IMG/VR virus record: IMGVR_UViG_3300012005_000003
Span: 37,401 to 101,400 of that record
From: a virus
Strand: one strand, 5' to 3'
Length of the DNA: 64,000 nt
Shown: piece after piece, positions 4,261 through 61,743 of the stretch
How the letters are laid out: each line of letters opens with the position of its first letter
Numbering within the stretch: the first letter of the stretch is position 1
Program-made: the position numbers and the translations under genes
The notes under the pieces: model-generated
What the model saw: the letters and a program-made list of their open reading frames with translations, nothing else
Database searches by the model: none
What the model was told of the DNA's origin: nothing

Positions 4261-4722
4261 ATGATAACAAACTTTAAACAATTTAATGAAAATCTGTTGG
4301 TTCCACGCAACCTGGAAGGGCGCAATGAGAAGCTCAAGCAGATTAACATCAAGCTGCTTTCTCAGGAAGTGATAGATGATAATTTAGAACTTGATGAGTC
4401 ATTCATGGACATAGATCCTAAATTCGTGAAACTGAAAAAAATAAATGGCACTGTTACATTAACAGGAAATCATTGGACCGAAATTCCTGAATGGTTAAAA
4501 GATGTGAAAATAAGTGGAATTTTTGATTGTTCAGATAATAAGTTAACAACTTTAAAAAATTGTCCTCAGGATATAGGAGGAAGTTTTTGGTGTGCGTTCA
4601 ACAAATTAACATCTCTTGAAGGATGTCCTAAAATATTAAAAAAATCTATCCATTGTTTTGACAATAAAGTTAAATTAAAACTTCCAGATTATGTTGATTT
4701 AAGAGGTAATATTTACAATTAA
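4261..4722 (+). CDS. LRR paralog 1 with capsid-targeting-like leader (3 FxCxxN repeats)
   Basis: MITNFKQFNENLLVPRN start; 22-aa repeats GGxFxCxxNxLTSLEGCP; close paralog of 49939, 50420 C-terminus, 59855 and 61216. Confidence 0.85.
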   Translation: MITNFKQFNENLLVPRNLEGRNEKLKQINIKLLSQEVIDDNLELDESFMDIDPKFVKLKKINGTVTLTGNHWTEIPEWLKDVKISGIFDCSDNKLTTLKNCPQDIGGSFWCAFNKLTSLEGCPKILKKSIHCFDNKVKLKLPDYVDLRGNIYN

Positions 4723-30826: not shown

Positions 30827-31138
30827 ATGAAACACATGAAACACATCAAATTATTTAAAGATTTCTTAAATGAGTCATTCAATATTACATCTGAAAAAGA
30901 TGATAATTATGAAAAAACAGACATTGTTATAGATATAATAGCAGGAAATTCAGGATTCGTAGGAACTGTAAAAGGGACCTATGATAATAAAAAAGTTGAT
31001 GCAACTATTTTTTATGGATATGAAAAAGGCTCTCAATTTTTATCAATAGAAGACGATAATCTTACTAACGATGATATTGAAATGCTTACTGATATTATTG
31101 AAAATGATGAAAATTTTATAAAATCTACCAATGAATAA
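30827..31138 (+). CDS. Leader-tagged protein, paralog of 42830..43138
   Basis: MKHMKHIKLFKDFLNE; YEKTDIVI...AGNSGFVGT...KKVDATIFYGY shared. Confidence 0.8.
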   Translation: MKHMKHIKLFKDFLNESFNITSEKDDNYEKTDIVIDIIAGNSGFVGTVKGTYDNKKVDATIFYGYEKGSQFLSIEDDNLTNDDIEMLTDIIENDENFIKSTNE

Positions 31139-31320
31139 AAAATTACAGAATCTAAACAAAGTTTAACTTTGAAAATGATTGTAGATACTTTAATAGAAGG
31201 AATCAATGAAATGATTTATGAAAGAGTTGGAGAATTAGAATCAATTCCAGAATTCAAAGATGTACCAGATGTTGAAAATATCATACGGAAAGAAGTCATT
31301 AATAAATTACAAAAATTTTA

Positions 31321-31358
31321 AAACTAAAAAGCCTCTAAATTTAGAGGCTTTTTAGTTT
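31321..31358. terminator. Intrinsic terminator closing array A
   Basis: AAACTAAAAAGCCTCTAAATTTAGAGGCTTTTTAGTTT palindrome. Confidence 0.85.
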
Positions 31359-31410
31359 TTAAACTATTCCTAAATTCTGTAATAAAAATAAACAATACAA
31401 AAATCAAACA

Positions 31411-31806
31411 ATGTTAAAAGTAAAAACTAAATTAGGCCAAAGCAAAATTGCAGGTACAGGATTATTTGCAGATCAGTTCATTCCAAAAGATGCAATCATC
31501 TGGCAGTATGATTCAGATCATGATAAATCATATACTCAAGAACAATTAGATAAAACAGAAGGCTTGGATAGAGATTTTCTGAACACTTACTGTTTCAGAT
31601 TTGATGGCTTATATTATCTGTGTATCGATAATTCAAGATTTTTCAATCATTCGGATAATCCTAATTGTTATTCATCTGAATTCAGTTCTGGTAATCTTGG
31701 TTACACAAAAGCCTTGAGAGATATAGAAATAGGAGAAGAACTGACAGATGATTATCTTGGTTTTGGTTTGACTGATGAAGACAAAGAATGGAACAAACAA
31801 TACTAA
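31411..31806 (+). CDS. SET-domain protein-lysine methyltransferase
   Basis: GTGLFA, RFFNHSDNPN, ALRDIEIGEELTDDY. Confidence 0.9.
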   Translation: MLKVKTKLGQSKIAGTGLFADQFIPKDAIIWQYDSDHDKSYTQEQLDKTEGLDRDFLNTYCFRFDGLYYLCIDNSRFFNHSDNPNCYSSEFSSGNLGYTKALRDIEIGEELTDDYLGFGLTDEDKEWNKQY

Positions 31807-31936
31807 ACATAAAGATAGAAAAATATAATATATTCGAAAAAGTACCAGTTCATGGATATACAGAAAATAATATGATATTAGGTCCTTATTCTTGTAAAGA
31901 AGATGCAGAAAAAGCTTCAGCTTTTTCTGCAAATAT

Positions 31937-33274
31937 TTATTTTCTATAAAACATATTCATAATAGGAATCATATCATCATATATCTCTTTCAAAGTAATA
32001 GATATAGATTTCTTTTTAGATTCTTCTATCCATTTAGAACAAAACATGTCCCAAAAGAATTTATAAAACCTGTCATTCGCCTTATCTATTTCATAATTAT
32101 CTAAATGTTCATATATTTCATTTTTGATGTTCAACCATATAGATCCATATTCTTCTTTCTTTCCAATCCATTCGTTATCTATCTGCATGTCTATGAACAG
32201 TTTTGCATTTTTAAATTTATTTATGATCTTCCAACCCATCTTCATCTTCTGCTCATCAATTTTAGTGTCAGTTCCTAACGTATTAGAAAATGCCCAGTAT
32301 CTTATACCAGATTGCCCATATTTTTCAAGCATTGGTTCACATGCTGTTGCATTGCCTGATGATTTACTAAACTTGTCACCTTTGCCATCAAGGGTGTGTC
32401 CAGTGATCATCAAAGTCTTCCAAGGTATTTGATTATTGATAAAGTAAGACATAGCTATAGTATAGAATGCCCAAGTTCTGATGATGTCATGAGACTGGAA
32501 TCTCATATCGAATATTGGACATTCCAACATATCATTATATCCTCTATCTGCAGACCAAGCAATCTGAGGCGTTAATGCAGAAATGAACCAAGTATCAAAA
32601 GTGTATGTTTCATCTCCTGGTATATTTATACCGAAATTTCTTTCTCTTGAAATGGACCAATCCCACTGGATATTATCGCACCAATCATCAAACCTCTTTT
32701 TGTATTTTTCGGGTTTCCAATTAATCTTACTACCCATCTCTTTTATCTGAGAAATATGATCCTTGATATTGATGAACCAACCTTCTCCGGTTTTGATAAT
32801 TGGAGTTTCACCAGTTCTTTCTATGAGTCCTTTATCGTCAAGTTCAGATTGTGATATAGATGTTTTTAATTGCTCAGACCATAAATATTCAGTAGTCTTT
32901 TTGTAAGCTATGCCTTTCTCTTTCAATATTTCAAAAGCTTGATATGCAATATCTATAGCAGTTTTATCATAAGTGTGATATTGATGATTCGAGAATTCTA
33001 TACCACTGTTTTTGAATTCTTTTTTATAGTCTTCTGATTTATCTATAGCAAAGCTTATTATATTCTCTTTACCCATTATGCCATTTTTAGATGCGAGTTT
33101 TCCTGTAGGGATGCCATTACAGTCGAAACAGAAAGGATATAGAAGCTCTCTACCTTTTAATTTCTGATACTGCGCAATAAGATCTCCTTGAGTGTAAGAG
33201 AATATATGACCTATGTGTAATTTTCCTGATATAGTAGGAGGTGGAGTGTCGATTAAGAATTTATTTGTTTTCAT
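31937..33274 (-). CDS. valS: Minimal valyl-tRNA synthetase (445 aa; CP1 editing domain and C-terminal coiled coil absent)
   Basis: DTPPPTISGKLHIGH, DWSISRER, TFDTWFIS, HDIIRTWAF, KFSKSSGN; start revised to ATG 33274 because the longer ORF spans the attenuator. Confidence 0.85.
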   Translation of the reverse strand: MKTNKFLIDTPPPTISGKLHIGHIFSYTQGDLIAQYQKLKGRELLYPFCFDCNGIPTGKLASKNGIMGKENIISFAIDKSEDYKKEFKNSGIEFSNHQYHTYDKTAIDIAYQAFEILKEKGIAYKKTTEYLWSEQLKTSISQSELDDKGLIERTGETPIIKTGEGWFINIKDHISQIKEMGSKINWKPEKYKKRFDDWCDNIQWDWSISRERNFGINIPGDETYTFDTWFISALTPQIAWSADRGYNDMLECPIFDMRFQSHDIIRTWAFYTIAMSYFINNQIPWKTLMITGHTLDGKGDKFSKSSGNATACEPMLEKYGQSGIRYWAFSNTLGTDTKIDEQKMKMGWKIINKFKNAKLFIDMQIDNEWIGKKEEYGSIWLNIKNEIYEHLDNYEIDKANDRFYKFFWDMFCSKWIEESKKKSISITLKEIYDDMIPIMNMFYRK

Positions 33275-33302
33275 GATTTTTGGTTTTAGTTTTTTGTTTA
33301 AT

Positions 33303-33332
33303 AAAAAAGTCCAACATTTATAATGTTGGACT
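33303..33332 (-). terminator. Attenuator terminator upstream of valS
   Basis: Minus strand: AGTCCAACATT-ATA-AATGTTGGACT-TTTTT. Confidence 0.85.
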
Positions 33333-33357
33333 CTATATAATAGATATGTGCACAACA

Positions 33358-33408
33358 TCAGACTCGAGTTGTGACAATGACAGTATTTAAAGCAAAAATA
33401 GATTTCAT
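33358..33408 (-). CDS. Putative valS leader peptide MKSIFALNTVIVTTRV
   Basis: 16 codons with three GTC Val codons at the 3' end; its stop overlaps TGATGTTG, complementary to the terminator 5' arm; TATATTTG box at 33413-33420. Confidence 0.75.
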   Translation of the reverse strand: MKSIFALNTVIVTTRV

Positions 33409-33441
33409 TTTACAAATATACAACTATATATTCAGATTATT

Positions 33442-35247
33442 TCAATTGTTAATAACTTTATTTTCATAAATATACAAGTTACTTCCTGTGTCATAACACC
33501 TTTCGTATCCATTATCTGCCATGATCTCAAATTCAGTCTGATCAATCGTACCCAATCCTTTATCAACTAATGAACTTTTGGTGAAACCAAAACGATGATA
33601 CCTAATACCATTTTTCACATACCAGTAGTTTGGAACAGTCGTCTTCGAATAAGAAAATCCGATCTTCTCATAGACATTGTCTGATAAACTCGACCAATCT
33701 AGTGAAGCATAGCTGAACACCGATATAGGATTTATTTCCTTTAGAAAATGTCTGAATAATCTGCTAGCACCTCCGATCACATTAAGATCTATCTTGTTAC
33801 AGAACCTTAATAATTCATAAACACCTTCTTCTACAATTCTACCTGTAACTCTCCTTCCATGCCCGAATGACATCATCGATACAGGTTCATCATTATACAC
33901 AAGAGTATATACTATTTTAGAACCAACGAAACCTTGAATATGGTTGTCTTCCATGAACTCTTTGTAGATAGAATAATCTTCCACTTTCACGATCTTGCAT
34001 TTCCTGGCATATATCTTTTCTGATATCAAGCCTAACATGTTCCTGATCCTTGATTTGACTATCGATTTCCTTTCCATCCAATCGTCTTCCCATATATGAA
34101 CTAGATTGATGCCTTTGTCATGAGCCAATTTCTTCTTATCTATGTGGTAGTTCTTGTCTTTGAATTTATCTGAATGCCAGTAGACTCCGTTGTATTCGAA
34201 TGCAACATTTTTAGAAGGGATAAAACAATCAAGCTCTAAGCCTATCTGGGCTCTATCGTTGGATATACAATCTTGATTTAAAGATCTAACATAATCTGTA
34301 AGTTCTTTTTCACATATAGAGCCAATGTTTACAGGATTGCATATAATACAAGGATTTTCAATTTTGTTAACTTTAACCCTTTGTGAAAAGAAAGCTGCAT
34401 TGATTTCGTAAATGTGATTATGTATACAACAAACAGTCATTATTCCGTTTTCACATTTTTTAATATCATGATTTGGGAATTTTATTAAATAATTTTCGTA
34501 TTCAATTTTATTCCTTGTTTCAGCAGTTTTTATTTTTACTTCTTTGTTCTGAGCAGTACTTTTAGCTCCATATCTTTCCAGATTTGTTTTTTCCGCTTTA
34601 TCTTTAATGCTTTCATGTTTAGCAGCATTAGTGACTCCATACCTTTCTAGATTCGTTTCAACAATCTTATTTTTGACAATATCTGAACTGAATGTATGAT
34701 CAACTCCGTATCTCTCCTGATTAGTTGAAATCATTTTATCCATCACCTCTTTGTTTCCTGCAGGAGTATCAGAACCATATCGCTCTTGATTGGTAGTTTT
34801 AACCTTGTCCTTTTTGGATTGTAATTTAGCTGTATTGGTTACACCGTATTTCTTTAGGTTATTCTTTTTGATTGTATCCTGAACCTCTTTGGACTGCGAT
34901 GGATTCAGAACACCATAAGTATCCATCATTGTTTGTTCGCGCTTTCTGATCGTCTCTGGATGACTCTGGCTGCATTTAGAAGAACATGTTTTACTGTAAC
35001 CTGTATTTGTAGATAAAAATGTTACTTTTTTAATTTTACACACTTCACATAAAACATCATCAGGTAATTTGTGATAATAATGGTAAAGCCTTTCTGAAAA
35101 TGATGAATATGGATCTAAATTTTTTGTATAGTCTAATATAGCATCATAAAATTCAGGAAAATTAGTAGATATAAAGCTTTGTCTTGCTTTAGAATTGAAG
35201 GTTCCGTCTTCTTTGGTTATGATTGAAAGCTCTTGTTGGAATTGCAT
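33442..35247 (-). CDS. Hef-like homing endonuclease, copy 1 (YG repeats + Vsr/PD-(D/E)xK domain)
   Basis: Repeated T(N/M)xE(R/K)YGV units; ELDCFIPSKNVAFEYNGVYWHS; IYARKC...HIQG...YELLRFC. Confidence 0.75.
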   Translation of the reverse strand: MQFQQELSIITKEDGTFNSKARQSFISTNFPEFYDAILDYTKNLDPYSSFSERLYHYYHKLPDDVLCEVCKIKKVTFLSTNTGYSKTCSSKCSQSHPETIRKREQTMMDTYGVLNPSQSKEVQDTIKKNNLKKYGVTNTAKLQSKKDKVKTTNQERYGSDTPAGNKEVMDKMISTNQERYGVDHTFSSDIVKNKIVETNLERYGVTNAAKHESIKDKAEKTNLERYGAKSTAQNKEVKIKTAETRNKIEYENYLIKFPNHDIKKCENGIMTVCCIHNHIYEINAAFFSQRVKVNKIENPCIICNPVNIGSICEKELTDYVRSLNQDCISNDRAQIGLELDCFIPSKNVAFEYNGVYWHSDKFKDKNYHIDKKKLAHDKGINLVHIWEDDWMERKSIVKSRIRNMLGLISEKIYARKCKIVKVEDYSIYKEFMEDNHIQGFVGSKIVYTLVYNDEPVSMMSFGHGRRVTGRIVEEGVYELLRFCNKIDLNVIGGASRLFRHFLKEINPISVFSYASLDWSSLSDNVYEKIGFSYSKTTVPNYWYVKNGIRYHRFGFTKSSLVDKGLGTIDQTEFEIMADNGYERCYDTGSNLYIYENKVINN

Positions 35248-35277
35248 GTATAAATTTACTAATTATTTTTGAGTAAA

Positions 35278-36969
35278 TTAAATTTTTACTCTATGATTAT
35301 AGGTGTAAAGGTTGGATCCAGAATCGTATATCATGTTACAATCATTATCATTTATGGTATTTTTATCTATACCAAGACGATGGTAACGAATTCTATTTTT
35401 GATATACCAATTACTGGGAACTGTTGTTTTGAAATATTCAAAACCCAATTTTTCATATACTGTATCATTTAAATTTGACCAATCTAGTGAAGCATAACTG
35501 AATACTGATATAGGGTTTATTTCCTTTAGAAAATGTTTAAATAGTTTACTTGCGCCACCTACAATATTTGTATCAATCTTATTACAAAACCTTAAAAGCT
35601 CATAAACATCTTCCTCTTTTTTCTTGCCTGTTATCATTCTAGCATGACCAAAAGACATCATTGAAACAATAATACCATTATACACAAGAGCATAAACAAT
35701 CTTTGAATTGACAAATCCCTGTATATGATTCTCCTCCATAAAATCTTTATATACTGTTAAATCTTCAACTTTAACAATTTTACATTTTCTGGCATAGATA
35801 CGTTCTGAAGTGTAACCTAGTATATTTTTAATCCTGGATTTAACTATATGCTTCTTCAATATCCAGATATCTTCCCATACATGTATAAGATTTATGCCTT
35901 TTTCATAAGCCTTTTTCTTTTTGTCTATATGGTAGTTTCTGCCTTTGAATTTATCAGAATGCCAGTAAATTCCATTATATTCTATAGCAATATTTTTTGA
36001 AGGAATATAACAATCTAATTCTCTTCCTATCTGTTCTCTGTCATTTATTATACATTCATCTCCGAATGATTTTATATAATCTATGAGTTCTTTTTCAGCA
36101 ATAGATCCAACATCAATTGGATTACATATAACACATGGATTTTCTACACCATATCTTCTGGTTCTCTGTCTAAAATCTCCTGTGTATATTTGATAATCAT
36201 GTCCATTTATACATGTAATAGTTAGTATGCTTTTATTAGTAGCTTTTATTTTAAATTCAGGATATTTAAGTATATATTTTTCAAGTTCTTTTTTATTATT
36301 TTTTATAGAAGCTTTATTTTTTACTATATCACTTTTTGCAGCATTTTCATGACCGTATTTTTCTAGATTTGTTTTGGCCATTTTGTCTTTGACCACTTGA
36401 TTCTGAGCTACATTTTCGTGACCATATTTTTCTAAGTTGGTTTTCTTAGCTTTATCTCTAACTTCTTTACTACCTGTAGGAGAATTTGAACCGTATCTCT
36501 CTTGGTTTGTCGCATTAGTTTTATCTCTTACTGTTTTCAGTTTTGCTGTATGAGTCACTCCGTATTTTGCAAGATTATTCTTCTTTATGGTTTCTTGGAC
36601 CTCTTTGGATTGTGATGGACTTGTCACTCCGTATTTTTCCATGAAAGAATTTTGTAAATTCTTTTTTGTTTCTGGATGATTCATGCTGCATTTAGGTCCG
36701 CAAGTTCTTGTATATCCTTTATTGATACTTAGAAATGCACATAGATCTTTTTTGCATACTGGGCAAACAACGGTATCAGGTATTTTGTAAATATAGTGGT
36801 ATATCTTTTGTGAAAATTTATCTCCTACTGTTATATCTTTGGTATATTCTAATATAGCTTTATGGAATTCTGGATATAATGAAGATATGCGAGGTTCTCT
36901 GATCTTTCCGTTTGAGAAATCTTCAGAGTCTTCCTTTTTTAGTTCGTTTATTATTTCTTTAAAATCCAT
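35278..36969 (-). CDS. Hef-like homing endonuclease, copy 2 (tandem paralog)
   Basis: Same architecture; ELDCYIPSKNIAIEYNGIYWHS. Confidence 0.75.
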   Translation of the reverse strand: MDFKEIINELKKEDSEDFSNGKIREPRISSLYPEFHKAILEYTKDITVGDKFSQKIYHYIYKIPDTVVCPVCKKDLCAFLSINKGYTRTCGPKCSMNHPETKKNLQNSFMEKYGVTSPSQSKEVQETIKKNNLAKYGVTHTAKLKTVRDKTNATNQERYGSNSPTGSKEVRDKAKKTNLEKYGHENVAQNQVVKDKMAKTNLEKYGHENAAKSDIVKNKASIKNNKKELEKYILKYPEFKIKATNKSILTITCINGHDYQIYTGDFRQRTRRYGVENPCVICNPIDVGSIAEKELIDYIKSFGDECIINDREQIGRELDCYIPSKNIAIEYNGIYWHSDKFKGRNYHIDKKKKAYEKGINLIHVWEDIWILKKHIVKSRIKNILGYTSERIYARKCKIVKVEDLTVYKDFMEENHIQGFVNSKIVYALVYNGIIVSMMSFGHARMITGKKKEEDVYELLRFCNKIDTNIVGGASKLFKHFLKEINPISVFSYASLDWSNLNDTVYEKLGFEYFKTTVPSNWYIKNRIRYHRLGIDKNTINDNDCNMIYDSGSNLYTYNHRVKI

Positions 36970-59854: not shown

Positions 59855-60379
59855 TTAATTTATAAATTTACCTTTTAAATCAACATAATCTGGAAGTTCC
59901 AATTTATATTTGTTTCCATAACAATAAAAATCTCCTCCTATATTTTCAGGACATCCTTCCAGAGATGCTAAATTGTTATAATAACAATCAAAATCACCTC
60001 CTATATTTTCAGGACATCCTTCCAGGGATATTAATCTATTTCTAGCGCACTTAAAACTTCCTCCTATTTCTTTTGGGCAGTTTTTCAGTGTTGTCAATTT
60101 ATTACCTGAACAACTAAAATTACCATTTACTTCAACATCTTTCAGCCACTCAGGAATTTCAGTCCATTCTAATGACGATAACCGAATATTACCATTCACC
60201 TTTTTAAGTTTTACGAACTTTGCATCTATGTCCATGAAGGATTCATTTAGCTCTAAATCTCCATCTATCACTTCCTGAGAAAGCAATCTGATGTTCATCT
60301 GTTTACGTTTTACATGTCTTTCTGCAAGGTTGCGTGGAACCAACAGGTTTTCATTGAATTGTTTAAAGTTTGTTATCAT
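59855..60379 (-). CDS. LRR paralog 4 (4 repeats) with leader
   Basis: MITNFKQFNENLLVPRN; TATATAGATCATG start context. Confidence 0.85.
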   Translation of the reverse strand: MITNFKQFNENLLVPRNLAERHVKRKQMNIRLLSQEVIDGDLELNESFMDIDAKFVKLKKVNGNIRLSSLEWTEIPEWLKDVEVNGNFSCSGNKLTTLKNCPKEIGGSFKCARNRLISLEGCPENIGGDFDCYYNNLASLEGCPENIGGDFYCYGNKYKLELPDYVDLKGKFIN

Positions 60380-61215: not shown

Positions 61216-61743
61216 TTATTTATTTTTAAATTTACCTTTTAATTTTACATAATCAGGAAGTTCTAATTTAACTTTATTATCACTACACCAAAAATCTCCT
61301 CCTATATTTTCAGGACAACCTTTCAGAGATGTTAATTTGTTCCATGAACAATTAAAACTTCCTGCTATATTTTTAGGACATCCTTCCAGAGATGTTAATT
61401 CATTATTATAACACCTAAACTCTCCTCCTATCTTCTGTGGACAGTTTTTCAATATTGTTAATTTATTGTCTGAACATAAAAAACTTCCCAATATTTTCAC
61501 ATCTTTCAACCATTCAGGAATTTCTGTCCATTGGTTTCCTGTTAATGTAACATCGCCATTAACTTTCTTGAGCTTGACGAACTTAGCATCGATATCCATG
61601 AAAGATTCATCAATCTTCAAATCTCCATCAATCACTTCCTGAGAAAGTAATCTGATGTTCATTTGTTTGAGTTTCTCCTTGCGGCCTTCTATATTTCTAG
61701 GGACTAGTAAATTCTCATTTACGAACGTCTTAAAATCTTTCAT
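61216..61743 (-). CDS. LRR paralog 5 (4 repeats) with leader
   Basis: MKDFKTFVNENLLVPRN; TATATAGATCATG start context. Confidence 0.85.
   Translation of the reverse strand: MKDFKTFVNENLLVPRNIEGRKEKLKQMNIRLLSQEVIDGDLKIDESFMDIDAKFVKLKKVNGDVTLTGNQWTEIPEWLKDVKILGSFLCSDNKLTILKNCPQKIGGEFRCYNNELTSLEGCPKNIAGSFNCSWNKLTSLKGCPENIGGDFWCSDNKVKLELPDYVKLKGKFKNK

Follow-up and report, generated by a model that had tools for sequence, protein, structure and literature searches.

The window analysed here, 64,000 nucleotides (nt) of a 101.4-kb IMG/VR virus record (IMGVR_UViG_3300012005_000003; estimated completeness 45%), carries on its minus strand a valS gene encoding a short valyl-tRNA synthetase (ValRS)-like protein, and the subject of this study is the candidate leader-peptide attenuator that lies 5' of it. 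The record has a G+C content of 30.6%, and a Shine-Dalgarno-like sequence precedes 3 of its 117 open reading frames (ORFs); valS, with its ATG at 33274, lacks one, as do 114 of the ORFs. The features of the locus, all on the minus strand, are as follows, in the order in which they would be transcribed.

33424-33431 (minus): ATATATAG, promoter-like box 15 nt 5' of the leader ATG, the better supported of the two boxes
33413-33420 (minus): TATATTTG, candidate Bacteroidota sigma-A -7-type box by sequence fit, 4 nt before the leader ATG
33358-33408 (minus): leader ORF of 16 codons plus TGA, MKSIFALNTVIVTTRV; ATG at 33408, TGA at 33360-33358
33373-33381 (minus): putative regulatory codons GTC ATT GTC (Val-Ile-Val), codons 10-12, corresponding to GTN GTN GTN in relatives
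33365-33376 (minus): region 1, TGTCACAACTCG, 5' arm of the 1:2 hairpin, starting inside the Val-Ile-Val codons
33347-33360 (minus): region 2, TGATGTTGTGCACA, opening with the leader stop codon; partner of region 1 or, via TGATGTTG, of region 3
33322-33334 (minus): region 3, AGAGTCCAACATT, the terminator's 5' arm; region 2 can pair here with CAACATTA (33328-33321)
33300-33318 (minus): region 4, AATGTTGGACTTT, 3' arm of the terminator, with the U-tract TTTTTTATT; from the fold and compensation in relatives
31937-33274 (minus): valS, 445-amino-acid ValRS-like class Ia synthetase lacking both the CP1 editing domain and Val; from profile models and composition

A preliminary description of this DNA had reported the -7-like box TATATTTG, the 16-amino-acid ORF and a 3' end of that ORF reading GTC ATT GTC ACA ACT CGA GTC TGA, and all three are present on the minus strand. 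It had also called the leader peptide Val-rich. Val codons are indeed there, but the enrichment is modest, with 3 Val in 16 codons (V-I-V plus a terminal V) and a V-I-V instead of a V-V-V run.

The locus was compared with DNA loci fetched from GenBank phages, IMG/VR and metagenomes (given L-numbers), the 260 nt 5' of each start being read. The same layout of leader, terminator and short valS precedes a valS homologue in 16 further loci with differing upstream genes (L001, L005-L008, L015-L017, L021-L025, L033, L043 and L045, of which L017 is cut), and 14 leaders, including that of the window, were taken through the full analysis. Of these loci, L001 is LR745206.1, a complete genome of 634,780 bp encoding 59 tRNAs, Val(TAC) and Val(GAC) among them, and was the sole match of a tblastn search of the GenBank phage collection. 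Al-Shayeb et al. predicted that their genomes of more than 634 kb infect Bacteroidetes (PMC7162821), and Bacteroidota is the presumed host phylum; a scan of 185,579 species genomes with the ValRS gave no prophage or host clue.

The leaders of the 13 other analysed loci have 14-20 codons and are otherwise variable in sequence. However, a V-V-V run (in some V-V-V-V) lies at codons 8-13 in 13 of the 14 leaders, the exception being the window, so that Val codons are conserved before the homologous short valS genes. When the V-V-V codons are aligned, G and T show little or no variation while the third base changes freely, a codon-periodic conservation that is expected of decoding and not of RNA structure or binding. 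Moreover, GTC or GTG account for 50 of the 61 leader Val codons (82%) against 23% of the Val codons of the genome, in which GTC is the rarest Val codon (10%). Among the loci with a Val-free enzyme, no leader was found within 1.2 kb 5' of valS in L018, L019 and the mid-GC loci L027-L029, and none for L020.

RNA helices and ribosome-masked folds

The 1:2 hairpin (33376-33347) was omitted from the preliminary description, as was the ATATATAG box, although every element which that description did list is present. In the window it folds with -9.7 kcal/mol (z -2.45), and it folds in all 14 loci (z from -0.65 to -4.8). The pairing proposed earlier between TGATGTTG (33360-33353) and CAACATTA (33328-33321), in the 5' arm of the terminator, holds up as a duplex of 8 pairs, one of them G-U, with -8.1 kcal/mol. 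Likewise, the terminator AGAGTCCAACATT-ATA-AATGTTGGACTTT (33334-33306), followed by a T-tract, was recovered with -14.9 kcal/mol and 12 pairs by RNAfold, one more than the 11 bp first described, and the valS ATG follows 31 nt past the stem, close to the 30 nt given before.

Covariation was assessed in a MAFFT alignment of the leaders. In the terminator (3:4), 94.1% of the cells are paired and none of 500 shuffles reaches its score, with compensatory change at 3 pairs and an A-U to G-C exchange in 5 relatives. In the antiterminator (2:3), 84.8% of the cells are paired, compared with 29-45% after a shift of the partner by 1-3 columns, and its covariation score was reached by 1 of 500 shuffles. 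RNAalifold, run on the full alignment, recovered the terminator only. Furthermore, regions pair better with their own partners than with those of other loci: -13.4 against -8.5 kcal/mol for 1:2 and -15.3 against -10.7 kcal/mol for 3:4 (0 of 20000 permutations in both cases), and -9.1 against -8.2 kcal/mol for 2:3 (p 0.02). The support for the putative 1:2 helix comes from folding of the individual sequences and from this partner-swap test. In L001, L007 and L022, each of the four regions carries an extra AT (ATAT).

A spacer motif, (A/G)CTATT(A/G), stands between regions 2 and 3 (33335-33346 in the window; also L001, L007, L022, L175, L179 and L191) and is common to Val, Ile and Asp attenuators; the Ile versions pair it with their ATA/ATT codon run, and no obvious partner was seen for it in the Val versions.

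The alternative folds were examined with a ribosome-masking model, in which the transcript was cut just 5' of region 4, 28 nt were blocked as the ribosome, and the probability that upstream RNA occupies region 3 was taken from the partition function; the model is one of equilibrium and not of kinetics. As a mean over the 14 loci this probability was 0.22 without a ribosome, 0.74 with a codon of the Val run in the A site and 0.13 with the ribosome at the stop codon, and the corresponding values for the window were 0.40, 0.92 and 0.26. In this model the masked folds give the classical, trpL-type logic in all 14 loci.

Synthetases and cognate leaders

The best models for the 445-amino-acid protein are those of valS (PRK13208, 329 bits; alt_ValS, 255; TIGR00422, 226), with ileS at 163 bits. 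All the valS scores lie under their cut-offs (738, 900 and 612, respectively) because the CP1 editing insert, in the middle of the models, is unmatched. Indirect support for a specificity of the enzyme for Val comes from its Val-free composition and from the VVV leaders, both of which point to valine. The family comprises 316 matches at E values of at most 1e-30, of 435-460 amino acids and on contigs of up to 770 kb; matches in the 185,579 cellular species genomes are distant full-length ValRS only, with at most 39% identity, in DPANN archaea, candidate phyla radiation (CPR) bacteria and Clostridia. A longer valS of 473 codons, from an ATG at 33358, was considered and rejected, as it would run through the terminator and all homologues begin at the site corresponding to 33274.

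The window enzyme contains 0 Val in 445 residues and no in-frame GTN codon, against a background of 5.4-5.7%, and its Ile content is raised to 12.1%. A set of 120 ValRS homologues, which includes one of 97% identity, contains 75 without any Val and 27 with one or two; relatives at about 45-50% identity have 12-22. No V-V-V leader precedes the genes of short-ValRS relatives that contain 9-22 Val (L003, L009-L013, L030, L032 and L034), in which the N-terminal motif is LIDVPPP or LIDCPPP and not LIDTPPP.

Related records (three IMG/VR fragments and LR745206.1) carry other synthetase genes behind leaders of the same kind:

IleRS, 735-738 amino acids: TIGR00392, 674 and 667 bits (cut-off 621.4); leaders MNFNTIIIIRYSIPWSIPIG, MFNHKNIIIIHYTIPWLKPIG and MRSTCIIIIHRLTPWIFQW (IIII)
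AsnRS: TIGR00457, 394 and 393 bits (cut-off 342.6); leaders MKTMTINNRNRLTDII and MKSLSINNNNHNRKP (NNRN or NNNNHN)
AspRS: PRK05159, 475 bits (cut-off 353); leader MKNIRLNDDRFLLTNCKADW (DD)
PheS-related ligase SrmL: NF051887, 423 bits (cut-off 300); leader MNTNTTFNFFFSHKMV (FNFFF); L236:21-1097 (minus), LR745206.1 614897-613821

In LR745206.1 the IleRS (L175) lies at about 382.0 kb, the AsnRS (L192) at about 390.5 kb and the AspRS (L191) at about 336.6 kb. Further paralogous attenuators are those of L178, L179 and L194. In the Ile, Asn and Asp cases the leader is followed by a terminator and, about 30 nt on, by the gene. The agreement between the amino acid of the leader and that of the enzyme is the strongest evidence for the attenuator reading that these sequences offer.

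A blind scan of the whole LR745206.1 genome for arrangements of short ORF, terminator and gene (150 amino acids or more) gave 18 candidates. In six of these the 2:3 duplex has a free energy of -7 kcal/mol or lower, and five of the six stand before synthetase-type genes, namely those for ValRS, IleRS, AsnRS, AspRS and the PheS-related SrmL, the remaining one preceding an unrelated ORF. In the window's own record the valS element is the sole one passing the scan. No attenuator was seen before the short LeuRS-like, GluRS and GlnRS-like genes or before the window's tRNA-Met, and no leader peptide before the MetRS-like gene.

The LR745206.1 enzymes behind cognate leaders lack their own amino acid altogether:

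ValRS: 0 Val in 443 amino acids (background 5.7%)
IleRS: 0 Ile in 735 amino acids (background 8.7%)
AsnRS: 0 Asn in 392 amino acids (background 7.1%)
AspRS: 0 Asp in 433 amino acids (background 7.6%)
PheS-related ligase: 0 Phe in 359 amino acids (background 5.0%)

Among the 214 LR745206.1 ORFs of at least 250 amino acids, these five enzymes are the only ones in which V, I, N, D or F is missing. In the other related records the IleRS and AsnRS proteins are likewise cognate-free, apart from a single residue in one IleRS. Absence of a charged tRNA, which is the state that the leader would sense, does not prevent translation of an enzyme that lacks the amino acid concerned. For SrmL, the 'PheS-related mystery ligase', the Phe-rich leader and the Phe-free enzyme suggest phenylalanine as the substrate.

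Three side observations concern composition. A 392-amino-acid ORF at L224:15520-16695 (plus) has 0 Arg, and its sole NCBIfam match is argS, at 39 bits; a 457-amino-acid MetRS-like ORF adjoining valS at L001:766-2139 (minus) has a GTG start and no Met; and the GlnRS-like genes encode one Gln each.

Proposed mechanism and its rivals

Two boxes could provide the start of transcription. The 101-kb record contains 50 copies of the motif ATATATA[AG], of which 36 fall in the non-coding 15%. The motif lies at most 60 nt 5' of 25 of the 117 ORFs, often 3-4 nt from the ATG; it, or a near-match, also stands before the homologous leaders in 7 of 14 loci (exact in 4), 3-7 nt from the ATG. In 16 of the 25 box-bearing ORFs it lies 1-4 nt before the ATG (for example at window positions 4261, 20062, 26314, 59855-60379 and 61216-61743), a spacing that suggests leaderless or nearly leaderless mRNAs. 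The second box, TATATTTG, resembles the Bacteroidota sigma-A -7 box (TAnnTTTG), which covers -12 to -5 (PMC9723704); its +1 would therefore fall at 33408, and transcription, if this box is used, would begin with the A of the leader ATG and yield a leaderless mRNA. The 4-nt spacing of box and ATG recurs in L006, L194 and L186 (5 nt in L192), and in L006 and L194, too, the transcript would begin with the A of that ATG. TA..TTTG is not enriched 5' of ORFs in this fragment (9 of 117), by which it was rejected as the general promoter of the fragment, and it remains a candidate only. A scan for the sigma-70 consensus gave 71 sites against 63.5 expected in 30% GC DNA. Whichever box is used, the valS mRNA must pass the terminator, because the gap of 28-38 nt between terminator and valS in loci without an insertion is too small for a promoter of its own.

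It appears likely that the element is a classical ribosome-dependent leader-peptide transcription attenuator controlling the phage valyl-tRNA synthetase. The preliminary description had already proposed this layout, and the 16 further loci, the covariation and the cognate leaders elsewhere now speak for it. The elements, their conservation and covariation, the match of leader and enzyme and the composition of the enzyme are observed, whereas it is inferred that the leader is translated, that transcription terminates, that ribosomes stall and what sets off the switch physiologically. Transcription would start just 5' of, or on, the leader AUG, with a ribosome reading the 16 codons behind the RNA polymerase. 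With ample Val-tRNA(Val), the ribosome would reach the TGA and cover region 2, so that the 3:4 terminator forms and transcription stops 30 nt before valS. If there were no translation, the 1:2 hairpin would form and again leave the terminator free, with the same outcome. A ribosome stalled at the Val codons (10-12) would cover region 1, so that 2:3 pairs, the terminator is blocked and valS is transcribed. Since it contains no Val codon, the resulting ValRS should be translatable even at zero charged tRNA-Val, and synthesis of the enzyme is probably confined to conditions in which charged valine tRNA is exhausted. The earlier suggestion that the phage responds to a shortage of charged tRNA-Val is reinforced by these zero Val codons.

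Several points weigh against this attenuator. The loci are mutually related, so that the shuffle counts overstate their independence. In fixed MAFFT columns 1:2 is 65% paired and gives no signal, indels shifting the register, and masking fails to separate the stalled from the at-stop ribosome in 2 of the 3 Ile attenuators. The reading presupposes coupled transcription and translation, as well as the translation of an mRNA with a very short leader or none, in a host that is uncultured, as is the phage, and probably belongs to the Bacteroidota. The window copy is moreover the weakest of the family, with its V-I-V run and a 2:3 duplex that is equalled by 34 of 300 shuffles, the support for this helix coming from the relatives; it could be a blunted sensor, or one reading Ile too.

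Carried further, this last point becomes an alternative in which the window holds an attenuator by descent whose V-I-V run is no longer Val-specific, and which would respond to general translation or to the supply of Val and Ile, or serve as a partial terminator of fixed strength. Multivalent leaders exist, ilvL among them, and the window has the sole leader of 14 without V-V-V together with an antiterminator among the weaker ones. Nevertheless, two GTC codons, the rarest for Val, still occupy the stall positions, the switch from 0.26 to 0.92 in the masking model is the largest of all loci, and the enzyme still has 0 Val, so that the selective regime seems unchanged; we therefore consider a loss of Val specificity unlikely.

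The hairpin and U-tract might instead terminate the gene upstream, which encodes a 601-amino-acid DUF7487 protein (minus strand, 35247-33442, with its stop at 33442) and whose DNA in part resembles homing-endonuclease genes of Campylobacter phages; valS would then be expressed by leaky read-through, and the leader ORF would be a chance frame. The terminator does lie about 110 nt 3' of that stop codon, short ORFs are frequent in AT-rich DNA, and the 2:3 pairing of the window is not significant alone. Such an origin is, however, very improbable given that the leader, V-V-V and the four regions are kept where the upstream genes differ, that the conservation is codon-periodic, that promoter-like boxes lie between the upstream gene and the leader, and that other synthetases have leaders for their own amino acids. 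Antitermination by a trans-acting factor on the leader RNA, either an uncharged tRNA as in a T-box or a TRAP/PyrR-like protein, in place of a stalled ribosome, would account for a spacer that is conserved and unexplained in the Val leaders, but is hardly credible when the cognate signal lies in frame within an ORF whose third codon positions are free to vary, the leader falls far short of T-box length, and an Rfam scan of 31000-36000 with E values up to 1 found no T-box or leader family at the site.

Returning to the Val-responsive attenuator, its combination with a cognate-purged synthetase may represent a 'restart from zero' module for many amino acids in huge Bacteroidota phages, a proposal that we make tentatively and hold to be slightly less probable than its contrary. 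Cognate-free cases comprise ValRS, IleRS, AsnRS, AspRS and the PheS-related ligase, and also the ArgRS-like (0 Arg) and MetRS-like (0 Met) proteins. Such a module would be needed only if the charging of one tRNA can collapse fully, which points to a knock-out of the host synthetase or tRNA and not to ordinary starvation; if the proposal is true, that knock-out might be due to a defence toxin, an inhibitor or a phage-induced host shut-off.

Known systems and variant loci

In Escherichia coli, the pheM-pheST operon has a Phe-rich leader peptide before phenylalanyl-tRNA synthetase. As there, the phage synthetase stands behind a leader ORF for its own amino acid, an intrinsic terminator and an alternative antiterminator, and LR745206.1 even has an FNFFF leader before its PheS-related gene; unlike pheM-pheST, the present element is phage-borne and would sense Val, it has Bacteroidota-type signals (no Shine-Dalgarno sequence, possibly a leaderless start) and its enzyme is cognate-free. 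The ilvL and ivbL leaders precede the enterobacterial ilvGMEDA and ilvBN operons, and ilvL has 32 codons. The phage leader shares with ilvL, ivbL and trpL the four regions, sensor codons about 5-7 before the stop and a stop codon that opens region 2, and with the ilv leaders the Val codons as putative sensor. It differs from ilvL, ivbL and trpL in controlling a tRNA-charging enzyme and not a biosynthetic operon, and in its length of 16 codons (against 32 in ilvL) with 2-3 sensor codons. There is no sequence similarity to the leader families of Rfam.

T-box riboswitches before valS and ileS of Firmicutes (PMC2494555) are comparable in that uncharged tRNA induces a synthetase through a choice between terminator and antiterminator. 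Here, by contrast, there is no tRNA-binding leader, specifier loop, T-box sequence or Rfam match, and sensing would proceed via translation. Within the presumed host phylum, amino-acid operons of Flavobacterium psychrophilum have been inferred to be under leader-peptide attenuation; in this organism synthetase mRNAs were reported just as having 'structured 5' UTRs' (untranslated regions; PMC9723704). The phage element has the candidate TAnnTTTG -7 box and the lack of a Shine-Dalgarno sequence in common with that organism (PMC9723704), whose attenuators, however, sit on host biosynthetic operons.

The mechanism itself is therefore known, being of the trp/pheM type; what is new is that it is phage-borne, that it controls a ValRS and that it is coupled to a valine-free enzyme. 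Full-text searches found no paper on phage synthetase attenuators or cognate-free synthetases, and nothing relevant on phage ValRS and 'cognate bias', most subscription-journal papers being outside their reach in both cases; the word stem 'attenuat' is absent from the huge-phage synthetase paper (PMC7162821). In that paper up to 15 tRNA synthetases are reported for huge phages (PMC7162821), and when and why such phages use them is an open question. A cognate-codon attenuator would tell when, as the gene would be read solely at a shortage of that charged tRNA, and the total absence of the cognate residue would tell how severe the expected shortage is. Leader codons and the missing residue together offer a simple sequence rule by which the amino acid of orphan enzymes such as SrmL may be predicted, and the pairing of attenuator and cognate-free enzyme makes the role of a phage synthetase directly testable.

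Some minor features lie at or near these loci. A stretch of the window at 31301-31397 gave weak Rfam matches (Phe_leader at 31301-31379, sau-19 and psRNA14) and was rejected as a leader, the scores being far below the gathering scores; it is an 18-bp bidirectional terminator hairpin. In two relatives (L005:223-340 and L021:429-560) a homing-endonuclease-like gene is inserted between terminator and valS, the layout lying further upstream, and L022 has a remnant of such a gene at the same place (about 1122-1195). An endonuclease gene inserted 3' of the attenuator terminator would place a mobile gene under Val control. Finally, in the high-GC loci L010, L011 and L035-L037 (44-45% identity), no obvious U-tract terminator is seen 5' of valS, which is preceded by a tRNA gene, a TATAAT box and a Val-rich frame (MTVLAASFVVRVGV..., MHLVAVRFVVGV...); the enzymes of these loci contain 21-22 Val.

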